Positions 46,824 to 51,075 of a stretch of DNA of 64,000 nucleotides are shown here, one piece after another. Numbering within the stretch: position 1 is the first letter of the stretch; the number at the start of each line of letters is the position of its first letter. The position numbers were made by a program, and so were the translations under genes. The notes beneath the pieces were generated by a model. It did no database searches. It saw nothing but the letters and a program-made list of their open reading frames with translations, and had not been told where the DNA came from. Origin of the DNA: a bacterium (GTDB lineage Bacteria; Hydrothermota; UBA3073; JACQXS01); assembly GCA_030605695.1 (NCBI GenBank), contig JAUWHX010000093.1, forward strand, positions 6,681 to 70,680. Direction: 5' to 3'.

Positions 46824-47963
46824 ATGATGAGTATATTTTTACTTTTGTTTGGAGTTTTGTGGAATGAGAAAAAGCAAGTAGATACTTTATTGCCGGAACT
46901 TGCCTGGCCCTATTATATATTTGAATCCACTGAGATTGAGGGATATAAAGTAATGATGTTTGAGCCCTCTATGCCCTGTTCTGTGCGTCAATTTATGTGT
47001 GGAGTAGGTTCTATGGCAGATGATGCAAGCAAGGAATGTGAATTATTTGTGTGGAGTGATGCTGGCGGGGAACCTGGATTGTTATTGTTTAATGAAAGTA
47101 TTACTATTAGTGCAACTGATTCTGGCAAGGTTTACTTTTACTGGCATAAATTGAGTTCGCCGGTATCGGTAGTGGGACCGTTTTGGATTGGAGTTAAGGA
47201 ACAAGGGTGTTTATTTCCCACTATAGTTTTTGATGAACTTCAAAAAACATCGGGCAAGTCTATTCATAGTAAAGATGGGACAGATTGGCAAACTTTTGAT
47301 GGGGATTATTTTTATGGTGTAGTGATTGATTATGGAGGAGAAGCTGAGATTTATGTAGAGCCGGATTCACTTGAGTTACTTATGAAAGAAGGTCAAGTTG
47401 ATTCTGAAGTAATATGGGTTTATAATAAGTCGCCTTCCTGTGATTTATCAGTAGATAGTGTTTGCTGGAGCAAGAATTGGATTTTATCTGTGAATCCCGA
47501 AGCTTTTTTATTAGCACCCGGCAGTTCAAAGCGTGTGGATGTAGTTGTTGAAGGTTCAGGAGTTGGGGAATACAATGATACTCTCTGGATTTTTTCAAAT
47601 GACCCCGATAAGAGTATATATCCTGTGCCAGTGCTGCTTTCGGTTGTCGGAGTAGAGGAGGGTTTAGGGTTCAGGGTTCAGGGTTTAGAGTTGAGAGTTT
47701 TTCCGAATCCAGCTTTGGGAGTAGCAAGTATCAGATTTCAGATGCCAGATGCCAGATGCCAGAACTCCGGCAGGAGACATCTAACATCTAACATCTCATT
47801 AAAAATTTATGATGTTGCAGGGAAATTAGTGAATGTACTTTTTGAAGGAGAAAAGGAGTGGGGGGTTCATACTTTATCGGTTAAGCTCACAGGTGGTGTT
47901 TATTTTGTGAAACTCAAAGCAAATGGTCAGGAAATAATCAAAAAACTTATAATAATAAGATGA
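46824..47963 (+). CDS. T9SS cargo protein of unknown function
   Basis: Intact C-terminal domain (..LRVFPNPALGVASIRFQ...ISLKIYDVAGKLVNVLF...GGVYFVKLKANGQEIIKKLIIIR). The linker before it is encoded by GGTTYAG and CAGATGC heptamer tracts (47661-47766). Confidence 0.65.
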   Translation: MMSIFLLLFGVLWNEKKQVDTLLPELAWPYYIFESTEIEGYKVMMFEPSMPCSVRQFMCGVGSMADDASKECELFVWSDAGGEPGLLLFNESITISATDSGKVYFYWHKLSSPVSVVGPFWIGVKEQGCLFPTIVFDELQKTSGKSIHSKDGTDWQTFDGDYFYGVVIDYGGEAEIYVEPDSLELLMKEGQVDSEVIWVYNKSPSCDLSVDSVCWSKNWILSVNPEAFLLAPGSSKRVDVVVEGSGVGEYNDTLWIFSNDPDKSIYPVPVLLSVVGVEEGLGFRVQGLELRVFPNPALGVASIRFQMPDARCQNSGRRHLTSNISLKIYDVAGKLVNVLFEGEKEWGVHTLSVKLTGGVYFVKLKANGQEIIKKLIIIR

Positions 47964-48928
47964 TTTTTTTCTTTGTAATGCTTCTTGAGCCTATTATTGC
48001 TCCCGGAACTACCGAGAGTTGGGATGATATGTGGGTGTTGGATGGTCATGTAATAGCAGTGAATGATACTCTTAAAATGTGGTATCTGGGGAAGAGAGAA
48101 GCCATTGATGTTTATAATCGCATGGGTATTGGGTATGCGTATTCTGTTGATACAGGTAAGACCTGGCAAAAATATTCTGGTAATCCAGTATTTGTCACAG
48201 ATAGTTCTTCACAATGGGAACATTCAAGCACAGGGCATGATGGATTATGGGAAGCAACGGTGATTTATGAGAACGGAGAGTATAAGATGTGGTATCAAAG
48301 TCGAGGTTATTGCAACTGCTTTAATACTTTATATGCAAGGAGTAATGATGGGATTAATTGGGAACGTAGGAATCAGGGAAAGCCGGTAGTATATGCAGGT
48401 TATCATGAAGGAGGTGACCCACGATGGGATTCATGGTATGCTGGAGCAAGGGCGATAATAAAGAAAAACTCTTTGTATTATCTTTTTTATGAGGGAGGAA
48501 GTTTTGGTAGTGGTAATCTTTCTCTGGGACTTGCGATTGGGACAAGTGAGACTACTTTTATGAAAATGGATACAAGCAAGCCGGTATTCACGACTGTTGG
48601 GACACCTGATACAATATGGGCAGGGGAATCAATAATTCCAAATGTTATTCTTGATGATGGGACTTTCATCTTGATTTACTCACCTAATATTACGCTTGCA
48701 CCACCTGCTACTGTAGGACTTGCTTTGAGCAAAGATGGGATAAATTGGGAGCGGTATGATAGAAATCCTTTTTGTGATTTCGGTAGAATGGGAATTCCCG
48801 GTGGGCAAGTTACATCAGTATATTGGGATATTACACCAGGATTAACGAAAGAATTGATTGCAATATTGAGAAGGATTCCTGCGGGTATATTTTCCTGTAA
48901 AATGCCTGTTCTATTGATTAGACCGTAA
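47960..48928 (+). CDS. Beta-propeller glycosidase-like protein (GH43/GH130-like fold)
   Basis: Repeated W/Y-rich blades (..MWYLG.., ..YKMWYQS.., ..LYYLFYEGG..). The ATG overlaps the upstream TGA. Confidence 0.4.
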   Translation: MIFFFVMLLEPIIAPGTTESWDDMWVLDGHVIAVNDTLKMWYLGKREAIDVYNRMGIGYAYSVDTGKTWQKYSGNPVFVTDSSSQWEHSSTGHDGLWEATVIYENGEYKMWYQSRGYCNCFNTLYARSNDGINWERRNQGKPVVYAGYHEGGDPRWDSWYAGARAIIKKNSLYYLFYEGGSFGSGNLSLGLAIGTSETTFMKMDTSKPVFTTVGTPDTIWAGESIIPNVILDDGTFILIYSPNITLAPPATVGLALSKDGINWERYDRNPFCDFGRMGIPGGQVTSVYWDITPGLTKELIAILRRIPAGIFSCKMPVLLIRP

Positions 48929-48957
48929 GAAAATTACACGGACTGTTATTACAATTT

Positions 48958-51075
48958 ATGGGAAGCATTTTTATTATTTTAGCGTTGTGTCAAAATGGTG
49001 CAAAGAGCGATTCTTTTAATATGCGGTGTGTTGGAAGATGGGGATTTGGGAGTGCATATAGCGTATGCGTTTCTGATACAATTTGTTGGCTTGGCTCAGG
49101 AACTGGAATATATGTGTTAAATATCAAGGACCCTGAATCACCGCAAAAGATAGGTGAGATAATGACTCCTGAGATTGTTCGTGGGCTTTTTGTTCTCGGC
49201 AATTATCTTTATGTAGCCGACAGTAAAGAAGGGCTTCGGATAGTTGATATAAATAATCCATCCTTGCCAATTGAGATAGGTGCTTACAAGACAAGAGGTT
49301 ATGCTCAGAGTGTATATTGTGTAGATACATATGCTTATGTGGTTGATAGGTTTGGACTTTATGTGATTGATATATCTAATCCTGAACTGCCTCAGAAGGT
49401 GGGATATTACGAGACGGCTGGTTATGCAACAGATTTATATTGTGATGGTGAATATGCCTGGGTTGCTGATGGAGACTCTGGGCTTCGGGTAATTGATATT
49501 AGGAATCCTGATTCACTTAAAGAAGCAGGATTTTGCGATACCAGAGATTATGCCTGTGGGATACATTGTAACAATGGATACGCTTATATTGCAGATTATA
49601 ACTCTGGAGTTAGTATAATTAGCAGGGCTAACCCTGCCTTTCCTGAAGAAGTAGGACATTACGAAAGTTCATTTCCTGTAGAGGATGTTCATTGTGATAG
49701 CACATATGTTTATCTTGCTTGTTTGTATGGGGGGTTTTTTATAATAGATATCTCTGAGCCTTCTTTGCCTGAGAAGGTTGGTGCCTGTGATACAAGAGGT
49801 ATTGCCCAAAATGTATATTATGATAAGAAATTCGCTTACATTGCGGATAGGCATGGGGGATTGTGTGTAATTGATGTGTCCTCTGATTCTCTGCCTCTGG
49901 AAAAAGGAAATTATGCCACTCCAGATAATGCTCAATCTATTTTTTGTGATGATTCTTTTGCTTATCTCGCTGATGGCTGTGCGGGAATTTACAAACTGGA
50001 TATTGTAAATCCCGAAGCAATTGAGCAAATAGAGCACTACGATACACCTGGGTATGCTACAGACATAAGTTGCTCTCCTAAATATGTTTATGTGGCTGAC
50101 AGGGAAGGGGGGCTTCGGATACTTGATATAGATTCACTTGAGGAGATTGGATGCTACAATCCGACTTATTGGTCTTGTGCATATGGAACCTGCTGTTATG
50201 ATAGTTTGGTTTATGTAGCAGATGGAGATTCAGGGCTTCGGGTCTTGGATGTATTAGCTCCTTATGCACCTCATGAGATAGGATATTATACTACTATTGG
50301 CTTTGCATCAGATGTATATTATGATAGTTTAGTTTATGTTGCTACCAGAGATTCAGGACTCCGCATATTTGAGATTTCAAAGTGGGGAGCTCCTTTGGAA
50401 GTCGGGTACTGGGATAGTCCTTCGCAAGTGTTAGGAGTATATTGTGATTATCCGTTTGTTTATCTTGCTGTTTGGAATTTGGGACTTTATGTATTGGATG
50501 TTTCAAATCCCTTAGTCCCTGTTGAAGTAGGACATTATGATACAGATGGATTTGCGTGTGATGTATATTGTGATAATAAGTTTGTTTATGTTGCGAGCGG
50601 TAATGGGGGAATATATGTAATAAGTAAAGATTCGCTTCATATGGTGGGACGCTATAGTTCATCAGATTGGACACACGGTGTTTTTTGTAAAGGGTCTTAT
50701 ATTTATGTTGTAGATGGGGGAGCTGGAGTTAAAGTGCTTGAGATTATTGACACAAGTGTGGAAGAAACTCTCAACTCTCAACTCTCAACTCTCAACTTGA
50801 AAGTTTATCCAAATCCTTTTACTCAGTTTACAGTTATTAGTTTTCAGTTGCCAGAACTCTTAACTCTTAACTCTCAACTTTTAACTCTCACGATTCACGA
50901 CATTGCTGGCAGACTTATTCAGGAAATTCCGGTTCACGATGCAGGGTTCACGATTCACGAAATAAGATGGGATGGGAAAAATAAGTATGGGAAAAGAGTA
51001 CCAGCTGGTATATACTTTTGTAACTTAAGTGGCTCGGTTTCTTCGGTTGCCGAAAAGCTTGTGTTAGTTAGGTAA
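48958..51075 (+). CDS. LVIVD-repeat beta-propeller T9SS cargo
   Basis: About 13 repeats of the ..GLR(I/V)(I/V)D(I/V)SNP.. type. The sorting domain is preceded and interrupted by AACTCTC heptamer tracts (50766-50892). Confidence 0.7.
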   Translation: MGSIFIILALCQNGAKSDSFNMRCVGRWGFGSAYSVCVSDTICWLGSGTGIYVLNIKDPESPQKIGEIMTPEIVRGLFVLGNYLYVADSKEGLRIVDINNPSLPIEIGAYKTRGYAQSVYCVDTYAYVVDRFGLYVIDISNPELPQKVGYYETAGYATDLYCDGEYAWVADGDSGLRVIDIRNPDSLKEAGFCDTRDYACGIHCNNGYAYIADYNSGVSIISRANPAFPEEVGHYESSFPVEDVHCDSTYVYLACLYGGFFIIDISEPSLPEKVGACDTRGIAQNVYYDKKFAYIADRHGGLCVIDVSSDSLPLEKGNYATPDNAQSIFCDDSFAYLADGCAGIYKLDIVNPEAIEQIEHYDTPGYATDISCSPKYVYVADREGGLRILDIDSLEEIGCYNPTYWSCAYGTCCYDSLVYVADGDSGLRVLDVLAPYAPHEIGYYTTIGFASDVYYDSLVYVATRDSGLRIFEISKWGAPLEVGYWDSPSQVLGVYCDYPFVYLAVWNLGLYVLDVSNPLVPVEVGHYDTDGFACDVYCDNKFVYVASGNGGIYVISKDSLHMVGRYSSSDWTHGVFCKGSYIYVVDGGAGVKVLEIIDTSVEETLNSQLSTLNLKVYPNPFTQFTVISFQLPELLTLNSQLLTLTIHDIAGRLIQEIPVHDAGFTIHEIRWDGKNKYGKRVPAGIYFCNLSGSVSSVAEKLVLVR

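Follow-up and report, generated by a model that had tools for sequence, protein, structure and literature searches.

The DNA analyzed here (the window) comprises 64,000 nucleotides of a metagenome-assembled bacterium placed in the Hydrothermota (assembly GCA_030605695.1, contig JAUWHX010000093.1, positions 6,681 to 70,680). Homologues and cluster members assign it to candidate division WOR-3. It carries a large excess of short tandem tracts with a seven-nucleotide unit, concentrated in the C-terminal sorting domains (CTDs) of type IX secretion system (T9SS) cargo genes. Coding DNA is normally cleared of microsatellites whose unit length is not divisible by three. We read the tracts in the window as slippage-prone heptanucleotide microsatellites, common throughout the genome, that persist only in permissive protein segments, and that occasionally act as frameshift switches and recombination junctions; we give this reading a probability of roughly 0.58.

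Tracts were detected with Tandem Repeats Finder and a separate period scan, at strict and lenient settings. The lenient scan returned 31 period-7 tracts, where first-order Markov simulations predict 1.45, and the strict scan returned 19 (shuffled sequence: 0). Period-8 tracts are mildly enriched (8 vs. 0.35 expected), periods 5, 6, and 9–13 are at background level, and period 14 merely echoes period 7. The tracts are 2.5–7 units long (18–49 bp), most have 1–5 mismatches, and certain unit families recur (AACTCTY, AACCCYN, CTCACRA, and AACGAAT/ATCGTTA). All but one of the 31 lie inside listed open reading frames (ORFs) or CTD segments, the single intergenic tract being that at 58285-58316, and the ORF stays open across 24 of the 26 coding tracts. 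GC skew tracks gene orientation, with no replichore signal in the window to account for unit orientation. The heptamer tracts named in a preliminary description of this DNA were all recovered, at or a few bases from where it had placed them. Its statement that a strand motif of the sorting domain is spelled by CACGAAT-like units also proved correct, as TIHD and THDSRITNHE are encoded by CACGAWT units.

Eleven T9SS type A CTDs were identified in the window using Pfam and NCBIfam profiles (Table 1; genes are referred to below by their first coordinate). Scores above the PF18962 cut-off of 27 bits were obtained for the CTDs of genes 46824 (40.8), 30637 (53.0), 29447 (58.4), and 56734 (27.9), for the gene ending at 63517 (60.4), and for the CTD of gene 4240 once its frame is restored (37.2). 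Those of genes 48958 (31.4) and 51077 (29.7), and of the partial ORF 1..888 (30.4), score above the TIGR04183 cut-off of 23 bits, and two are sub-threshold: gene 52395 (19.7) and gene 2024 (23.0 vs. 27). Nine of the matches end at most ∼11 residues from the stop codon, and the sub-threshold match of gene 2024 ends 21 residues before it. An AlphaFold2 (AF2) model of the CTD of gene 46824, built on nine window sequences, has a mean predicted local distance difference test score (pLDDT) of 77 and seven strands, as in an immunoglobulin-like β-sandwich. With this model, Foldseek ranked the NucA CTD (8glk_D) first and also returned the mirolase (8qb1_A) and RgpB (7pq4) CTDs, with weak E-values of 1e-3 to 8e-3. 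By hidden Markov model score, C-terminal position, and predicted fold, the modules that host most of the tracts qualify as bona fide type A CTDs. No homologue was found with the 112-residue CTD of gene 46824 as the query, and no T9SS core genes were identified within the 64 kb; a relative at ∼80% identity (L002) encodes a 1864-residue SprA_N protein adjoining lnt. Among the cargo domains of the CTD genes are LVIVD propellers, a C1 peptidase, and BNR/DUF5122 propellers. In three of these genes, tandem repeats of 156 bp (52 residues; 72–86% identity) at 29777-30386, 31094-31822, and 57334-57861 overlap the DUF5122 and BNR matches of the cargo and probably correspond to propeller blades.

For the analysis of tract position, each CTD was taken together with the 15 residues upstream. 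These 11 segments amount to 3282 nt, or 5.1% of the window, and contain 17 of the 31 tracts (binomial p = 1.6e-14), while the cargo portions of these genes, 12.5 kb in all, contain none (Fisher p = 8e-13). This is a concentration of ∼27-fold; in the first ten CTD segments (3036 nt), tracts account for 16.6% of bases, compared with 0.6% elsewhere. The earlier claim that heptamer tracts gather at the junction of cargo and sorting domain is thus upheld, with the qualification that the junction is the densest tract site and not the sole one, as 14 tracts lie outside CTDs. Within the CTDs, the tracts occupy four positions: (I) from the conserved GVEE motif to the PNP motif, in six CTDs; (II) strand β1 (VIRYSL type); (III) the β1-β2 loop and the beginning of the IYD strand; and (IV) the loop and strand following GR.V. 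In 8 of the 11 window CTDs, the N-terminal half consists largely of heptamer or octamer repeats, and some have loop insertions of 10–13 residues; the CTD-bearing homologues of other lineages did not show this. The CTDs of ORF 1..888 and of genes 2024 and 56734 are tract-free and canonical in appearance. In the model of the gene 46824 CTD, tract I falls in a disordered linker and the first strand, and tracts II and III (47731..47796) are imperfect inverted copies around a loop insertion of 12–13 residues, QMPDARCQNSGRRHLTSN, with low pLDDT (model residues 40–54).

The tracts are repeats of DNA, not of protein. The AACTCTY family is found in both orientations at the same CTD position, encoding LNSQLST when read one way and LELRV or SLEFKV when read the other. 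In 11 of the 26 coding tracts, the consensus unit, read cyclically, contains a stop triplet; nine of these are long enough for the stop to fall in frame, and all nine are altered exactly at that copy. Perfect arrays would encode GLGFRV*GLGFRV in gene 46824 and SLEFRV*SLEFRV in gene 51077 (the asterisk denotes a stop), where the actual sequences are GLGFRVQGLELRV and SLEFKVESLELRV; similarly, KLKVKS*KLK is replaced by KLKVKSEKLK in Lnt, and LLTLNS*LLT by LLTLNSQLLT in the CTD of gene 48958. The units of the most perfect arrays (50766, 19547, and 12160) are stop-free.

Comparison with sister strains indicates how the tracts change. Exact-sequence look-ups with IspD, Obg, and Lnt of the window gave no match; sister-strain DNA was found through homologue searches and cluster members, and seven contigs (L001, L126, L127, L128, L129, L137, and L139) align to ∼41 kb of the window at 89–97% nucleotide identity. 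Period-7 tracts are also present in L001–L004, L126, L128, L137, and L139, a set of loci that includes more distant relatives as well as sister strains, with counts at the shorter loci too small to indicate an excess. Among 22 orthologous tract pairs, 15 are identical or differ by 1–6 substitutions. One pair has changed in concert (36178, TCGTGAG in the window vs. TTGTGAG/TTATGAG in L001). In four pairs, a different heptamer occupies the same site, with conserved flanks and length differences that preserve the frame (Table 1). The remaining two differ by exactly one 7-nt unit, at 4280-4286 (+7 nt) and 12158 (−7 nt), and both of these indels frameshift the gene. Per base, frameshifting indels are ∼40–120 times commoner in tracts than in other coding DNA. 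At the level of single CTDs, tracts II and III of gene 46824 are almost identical in L128, those of gene 51077 differ from L128 by 0–2 substitutions, and those of gene 52395 are identical in L128; the tracts of gene 30637, which encode SEELKVKSLELRV, VIRYSL, and TINDLRLTIYD, are almost identical in L001. The LVIVD gene 48958 and its CTD (48966-51107) are absent from L128 and L129, which have ∼88 nt there instead.

The first of the two one-unit indels lies in gene 4240, where the window has three AGAGTTC units and the sister contigs L126 and L127 have two. In the sister proteins (P0209 and P0210), the CTD is intact, with the sequence ...EFKVKSSELKDLQLQIYDLGGRLV..., and the extra unit in the window therefore detaches the sorting domain from the cargo, with the remainder of the CTD out of frame. 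An independent assembly, L125, has the three-unit allele of the window, and L126 and L127 agree with each other. The orthologue in L126/L127 lacks one base near window position ∼5588, outside the repeats, and is split in its N-terminal part as a result. Different mutations have therefore disrupted the gene in the two lineages, and the unrelated 1-nt frameshift in the sister copy suggests gene decay rather than switching. The second indel affects an AMIN-domain gene within a pilM-pilN-pilO-AMIN-PilQ secretin operon (9378-14151). Here the (TCTCTTG)n array of the window has one unit fewer than that of L137, in which the gene reads MNTAKLKFFCLLSLVFCLLSPVYGAEV... from an ATG overlapping the pilO stop. 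In the window, the frame from the ATG at 12138 ends after only 24 codons, and an internal TTG is the sole possible start of the long ORF. This one-unit difference may represent an on/off state of the type IV pilus secretin.

Since seven is not divisible by three, a set of three units encodes the same 7-residue peptide in every frame, and an array would therefore last only where the protein tolerates such a peptide. In the window, the sites are the linker and N-terminal half of the CTD (before PNP, β1, and the β1-β2 and β2-β3 loops), as well as a signal peptide, inter-domain linkers, and surface loops of housekeeping enzymes. CTDs may be the richest tract site because they are the least constrained and most duplicated modules and exchange segments with one another. 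Arrays would change by slipped-strand mispairing. A gain or loss of one 7-nt unit frameshifts the gene; a change of this size has uncoupled one CTD from the cargo part and left the PilQ-AMIN gene out of frame with its start codon, and repeated slippage under frame-restoring selection could gradually swap the unit type. We infer that slippage is the mechanism, that tolerance together with paralogy is the reason for the concentration in CTDs, and that switching is a by-product and not a designed system.

Several points weigh against this interpretation. The evidence base is ∼41 kb of sister-strain sequence and a single 64-kb window. Whole arrays have been replaced, as from (AACCCCG)n to (GAGTTNA)n, at a flank divergence of only 5–10%, which is rapid for slippage that proceeds stepwise; in genes like Lnt and YfhO, each step of one unit would shift the frame. 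Except for a CCCCTAA remnant at 28657-63, no intermediate compound arrays were seen. The significant hairpins formed by several inverted tract pairs are not explained by tolerance alone. Finally, both whole-unit indels fall in secreted or surface functions, as a contingency system predicts.

A possible, if tentative, alternative is that the tracts are mainly substrates or footprints of recombination between CTD paralogues, in which arrays would supply microhomology for module exchange or gene conversion and the concentration in CTDs would be inherited from a duplicated, tract-bearing ancestral CTD. The CTD of gene 30637 is a mosaic: its 5′ half (through IYD) is 77% identical to that of gene 51077 and 43% to that of gene 29447, its 3′ half is 86% identical to gene 29447 and 59% to gene 51077, and the switch point is immediately 3′ of tract III (the 30781 tract). 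The preliminary description had suggested a hotspot for the shuffling of sorting domains, and this mosaic, with its switch adjoining a tract, supports the suggestion, although it is the only clear case. Positions I–IV are common to the paralogues, with related unit families recurring there, and the 3′ halves of the CTDs of genes 29447, 30637, and the gene ending at 63517 are 77–86% identical. In addition, the CTD of gene 48958 is closer to that of its neighbor, peptidase gene 51077, than to that of its cargo paralogue, gene 52395. However, the unit type at a given position varies among paralogues and even between orthologues, and simple inheritance is therefore insufficient. Tracts also occur in single-copy genes with no paralogue as a partner, and no donor arrays for the replaced tracts were found in the available window and relative sequences.

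Alternatively, the tracts could be evolved contingency loci, maintained at CTD junctions and in the PilQ-AMIN signal peptide, in which one-unit slippage would reversibly determine whether cargo is exported (secreted or anchored) or retained and whether pili are on or off, and so diversify the cell surface within a population. We judge this unlikely, even though a tandem unit that is not a multiple of three and lies within an ORF is typical of simple sequence repeat (SSR) contingency loci. Whole-unit copy-number differences do switch the frame between relatives (2 of the 22 pairs), in exactly such genes and with exactly that effect, and the enrichment of tracts in CTDs agrees with the proposal. 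The longest and most perfect arrays (12160, 19547, and 50766) could, with their stop-free units, slip without introducing stops. There is also a precedent for a coding heptanucleotide switch in neuO of the Escherichia coli K1 phage CUS-3, where a variable number tandem repeat of AAGACTC ranges from 3 to 53 units and 65.6% of genomes are phase-OFF (PMC13001214). In contrast, the window tracts have 2.5–6, mostly imperfect units; 11 of the 13 CTD tracts compared are unchanged between strains at 90–97% identity, and, among all 22 pairs, long perfect tracts with a copy number variable in most strains are not what was found (15 unchanged). The same kind of tract occurs in Lnt, IspD, GT4, and YfhO genes, where switching would be harmful, independent assemblies agree with one another within each lineage, and the decay suggested by the sister copy of gene 4240 argues in the same direction. 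Of the earlier proposal that slippage uncouples cargo from sorting domain and is used as a switch, the uncoupling was thus seen once, in gene 4240, and the use as a switch was not borne out, given the short and mostly imperfect tracts, their stability in CTDs, their presence in housekeeping genes, and the unrelated frameshift.

A broader version, which we consider quite doubtful, is a genome-wide system of contingency and rewriting of the exported proteome in WOR-3, combining reversible frameshift switches at the start of T9SS sorting domains and in the PilQ-AMIN signal peptide, breakpoints for module swapping, and an active, possibly enzyme-assisted rewriting of arrays within 5–10% divergence. 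If true, such a system would be the first case of a secretion signal subject to phase variation, and also the first contingency system from a free-living phylum without cultured members.

Selection on peptides with a 7-residue periodicity (e.g., a recognition or cleavage motif like LELRV before PNP), with the DNA periodicity secondary, is very improbable. Sequences of the LELRV type do precede PNP in five CTDs of the window and also in metagenomic CTDs unrelated to it, and tract-coded segments are partly β strands in the model. Yet the same position also holds unrelated peptides (LNSQLST, GLGFRVQ, RLEIGDW, and the ACAGTCC-coded peptide of L128) and reverse-complement arrays, the same unit families are found in cytoplasmic enzymes and in one intergenic region, and the patching of stops makes sense only with the DNA repeat as the earlier state; this patching and the occurrence of both orientations contradict selection for a repeat in the protein. 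Artefacts of metagenome assembly or sequencing are scarcely credible as the source of the tracts or of their length differences, for although all sequences are metagenome-assembled and repeats can in principle be mis-assembled, the tracts (18–49 bp) are well below read length, the same alleles appear in independent assemblies (L125 and the window; L126 and L127), ORFs are kept through nearly all coding tracts, and similar arrays exist in complete isolate genomes. Programmed ribosomal or transcriptional slippage is likewise unlikely, with no slippery X XXY YYZ motif or homopolymer run.

Table 1. CTD-bearing genes, heptamer tracts, and replaced arrays in the window (positions in window coordinates; x, number of units).
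Feature	Position	Strand	Units, encoded peptide, and remarks
CTD-bearing gene (partial ORF)	1..888		
CTD-bearing gene	2024..4045	-	
CTD-bearing gene	4240..5814	-	Frameshifted CTD at 4059-4345
CTD-bearing gene	29447..30463	-	
CTD-bearing gene	30637..32112	-	
CTD-bearing gene	46824..47963	+	
CTD-bearing gene	48958..51075	+	LVIVD
CTD-bearing gene	51077..52297	+	C1 peptidase
CTD-bearing gene	52395..54644	+	LVIVD; atypical CTD
CTD-bearing gene	56734..58179	-	
CTD-bearing gene	Ending at 63517	-	
Out-of-frame CTD remainder, gene 4240	4059..4259	-	LQLQIYDLGGRLV...KKLLLLK*; includes period-8 tract 4178-4211
Tract, gene 4240 CTD	4267..4286	-	(AGAGTTC)2.9 in β1-β2 loop
Tract I, gene 29447 CTD	29718..29747	-	AGGCAAT-type units; GNRHKAIGI before SLEIYPNP
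Three tracts, gene 30637 CTD	30781..30920	-	ATCGTTA type, TAACGAA x2.9, AACTCTT x5.9 (plus-strand reading)
Tract I, gene 46824 CTD	47659..47699	+	(AGGGTTY)4 then AGAGTTG AGAGTT; codes GLGFRVQGLELRV immediately before FPNP
Tract II, gene 46824 CTD	47739-47763	+	CAGATGC x3.6
Tract III, gene 46824 CTD	47777-47796	+	ACATCTA x2.9
Tract I, gene 48958 CTD	50766..50797	+	AACTCTC x4.6, perfect; TLNSQLSTLN before LKVYPNPF
Tracts III/IV, gene 48958 CTD	50855..50960	+	AACTCTY x4.9 (50855-50888; ELLTLNSQLLT), TTCACGA-type units (TIHD..., FTIHE)
Four tracts, gene 51077 CTD	51995..52183	+	At 51995-52033, 52060-78, 52106-23, 52152-83; units AGTTKAG x5.6 (SLEFKVESLELRV), CGTTATT x2.7 (VIRYSL), CGATTCA x2.6 (RFTIHD), CGAMTCA x4.6 (THDSRITNHE)
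Two tracts, gene 52395 CTD	54405-34, 54505-31	+	CTCTYAA/AACTCCC (LLTLNSQLPT); AACCCCT x3.9 (PLTPNPQT)
Two tracts, CTD of gene ending at 63517	63677..63787	-	Tract I (TAGAGAT)n before LQIYPNP; one period-8 tract
AMIN-domain gene tract	12160..12197	+	(TCTCTTG)5.4, signal-peptide codons; gene upstream of PilQ secretin gene
YfhO-like gene (18498..20876) tract	19547..19579	+	(CAGAAGC)4.7, perfect
YfhO-like gene, second tract	20521..20569	+	(ACCCCGA)7; codes PEFQTPNPEPRTPNP
IspD tract	21870..21894	+	(ACCCTAW)3.6; TLNPIPDT
FemAB-like acetyltransferase tract	27432..27450	+	(CTGCAAT)2.7
GT4 glycosyltransferase tract	28628..28663	+	(CTCACAA)5.1; inter-domain linker
Lnt tract	36178..36214	-	(GACTCAC)5.3; codes NSQLTTHDSRLT
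Lnt linker tract	36666..36699	-	(AAAAGTT)4.9; KLKVKSEKLK
Asparagine-synthase-like gene (60453..62216) tract	60481..60517	+	AATCGTT type, at N-terminus
Replaced array	19547		Window CAGAAGC, L139 TCAAAAC; 21 nt difference
Replaced array	20521		Window AACCCCG, L139 GAGTTNA; 3 nt difference
Replaced array	28628		Window CTCACAA, L001 AACCCCT; 3 nt difference
Replaced array	47659		Window AGGGTTY, L128 ACAGTCC; +3 nt difference

The 14 tracts outside CTDs are mostly in frame within ordinary genes (Table 1). Compared with PDB 5ddt, IspD has a 5-residue loop insertion at the place of its tract, and the Lnt tract at 36178 coincides with a 10-residue insertion relative to PDB 6nwr; at the site of the Lnt linker tract (36666), the relative L002 has a CAAATNA array. 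Alignment of Lnt homologues places the tract peptides in variable loops specific to the lineage; in close relatives, these or additional loops carry other inserts. The Lnt of L001 (P0001; L001 ∼7340-7372) and P0003 have an extra 11-residue loop insert, VGVKRKSRSGG (33 nt), which is missing at window ∼36415, and a further 18-nt indel adjoins the tract at 36178; loop indels therefore accompany tracts.

Heptamers of this kind are widespread outside the lineage. A scan of GTDB (one genome per species) for (AACTCTY)n of at least 3.6 units returned at least 120 stretches, with ∼0.01 expected. Among the matches listed are Bacteroidales, Fibrimonadales, Cloacimonadota, Planctomycetota, cyanobacteria, Clostridia, and others, including complete isolate genomes, and these arrays often form an in-frame part of long ORFs, where they read LNSQLST, without a link to CTDs. 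The loci around the listed matches contain 278 period-7 tracts, compared with 2–33 for periods 5, 6, 8, and 9. A scan for period-7 peptides in 87 cargo homologues and 116 Lnt homologues of other lineages found no excess, and the pattern of the window is therefore not a general property of these families. In a metagenome scan for the junction pattern GAGTTRAGRGTTTNTCCRAATCC, four of the seven loci found lie in CTDs. One locus from another organism (L130, JGI Ga0082212_10071979; GC 47%) has a 10.7-copy ATTAGTG array at 130-204; in L130, heptamer tracts also occupy positions I and II of a CTD, a hint that other lineages rich in heptamers show the CTD association as well.

Rickettsia palindromic elements are in-frame selfish insertions with conserved palindromes of ∼100–150 bp. 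The window resembles them in that repeat DNA is tolerated in ORFs at permissive surface positions and some tract pairs form hairpins; unlike them, it has tandem heptamers and no conserved element sequence, which makes a mobile palindromic element an unlikely source. As in neuO, the window tracts are coding heptanucleotide repeats of which three units encode a 7-residue peptide, with a full-length product only in frame, and they would likewise change by strand slippage (PMC13001214). However, neuO is a single locus with 3–53 perfect units and differs in nearly every genome, whereas the window has dozens of loci of 2.5–7 mostly imperfect units, only 2 of 22 of which show unit indels between sister strains, and many of which are in housekeeping genes. 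With the cyanobacterial short tandemly repeated repetitive (STRR) sequences and the heptamers of Nostoc and Xanthomonas, the window shares an excess of tandem heptanucleotides from few unit families (31 tracts in 64 kb), inverted arrangements, and variability between close relatives (PMC4692102), and Calothrix, Nostoc, and Rivularia also have (AACTCTY)n. While the STRR families are described as intergenic (PMC4692102), the window tracts are translated and concentrated in one protein module, with 17 of them within CTDs. The TAACTGA repeats of marine Beggiatoaceae, cyanobacteria, and some Bacteroidetes are likewise heptamer direct repeats with a patchy phylogenetic spread, and the stop codons present in one orientation limit their placement in coding sequence (PMC4679880), the same constraint as that seen in the stop-patching of the window. 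They differ in unit and in location, as they lie mostly just upstream of start codons and were proposed as regulator binding sites (PMC4679880). The SSR contingency loci of Haemophilus and Neisseria, including HMW1A, share with the window a unit that is not a multiple of three at surface-structure genes, where indels switch expression (PMC8262952; PMC2651432). Unlike these pathogen loci, the window tracts are short and lack evidence of high-rate reversible switching, and the organism is free-living and environmental. What sets the window apart from known heptamer systems is that its tracts are short and numerous, lie overwhelmingly in coding sequence, and cluster in a single protein module.

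Heptamers make up about one-sixth of the bases in a class of secretion signals and are also present within essential enzymes. Should the arrays slip at a useful rate, T9SS secretion could be switched gene by gene at the sorting tag, for which we know of no description in this system. Even if neutral, the tracts represent a natural experiment on the tolerance of the CTD (linker, β1 edge, and β1-β2 and β2-β3 loops), and a tractable case of DNA repeats being patched into proteins, including the repair of in-frame stops. For annotation, they are a warning that split or CTD-less cargo genes in such metagenome-assembled genomes may be one-unit slippage variants.

The inverted tract pairs at 47725-47800 (+) and 30775-30860 (-) form predicted RNA hairpins more stable than those of shuffled sequences (z = −3.6 and −4.6, respectively). 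Rfam has no match anywhere in the window, and the hairpins therefore do not belong to a known RNA family. Period-8 tracts are found at 4178-4211, 29607-29678, 63677-63714, 14223-14251, and 40799-40871, some in CTD loops and others intergenic. A variant unit of the GT4 array at 28628-28663, CTCAAGA, is a rotation of the neuO heptamer AAGACTC, which is probably a coincidence. Upstream of the CTD gene cluster, the intergenic segment 29332-29416 contains ∼4 copies of a 21-bp repeat, and a nearby 48-nt segment (29240-29287) is absent from L001.

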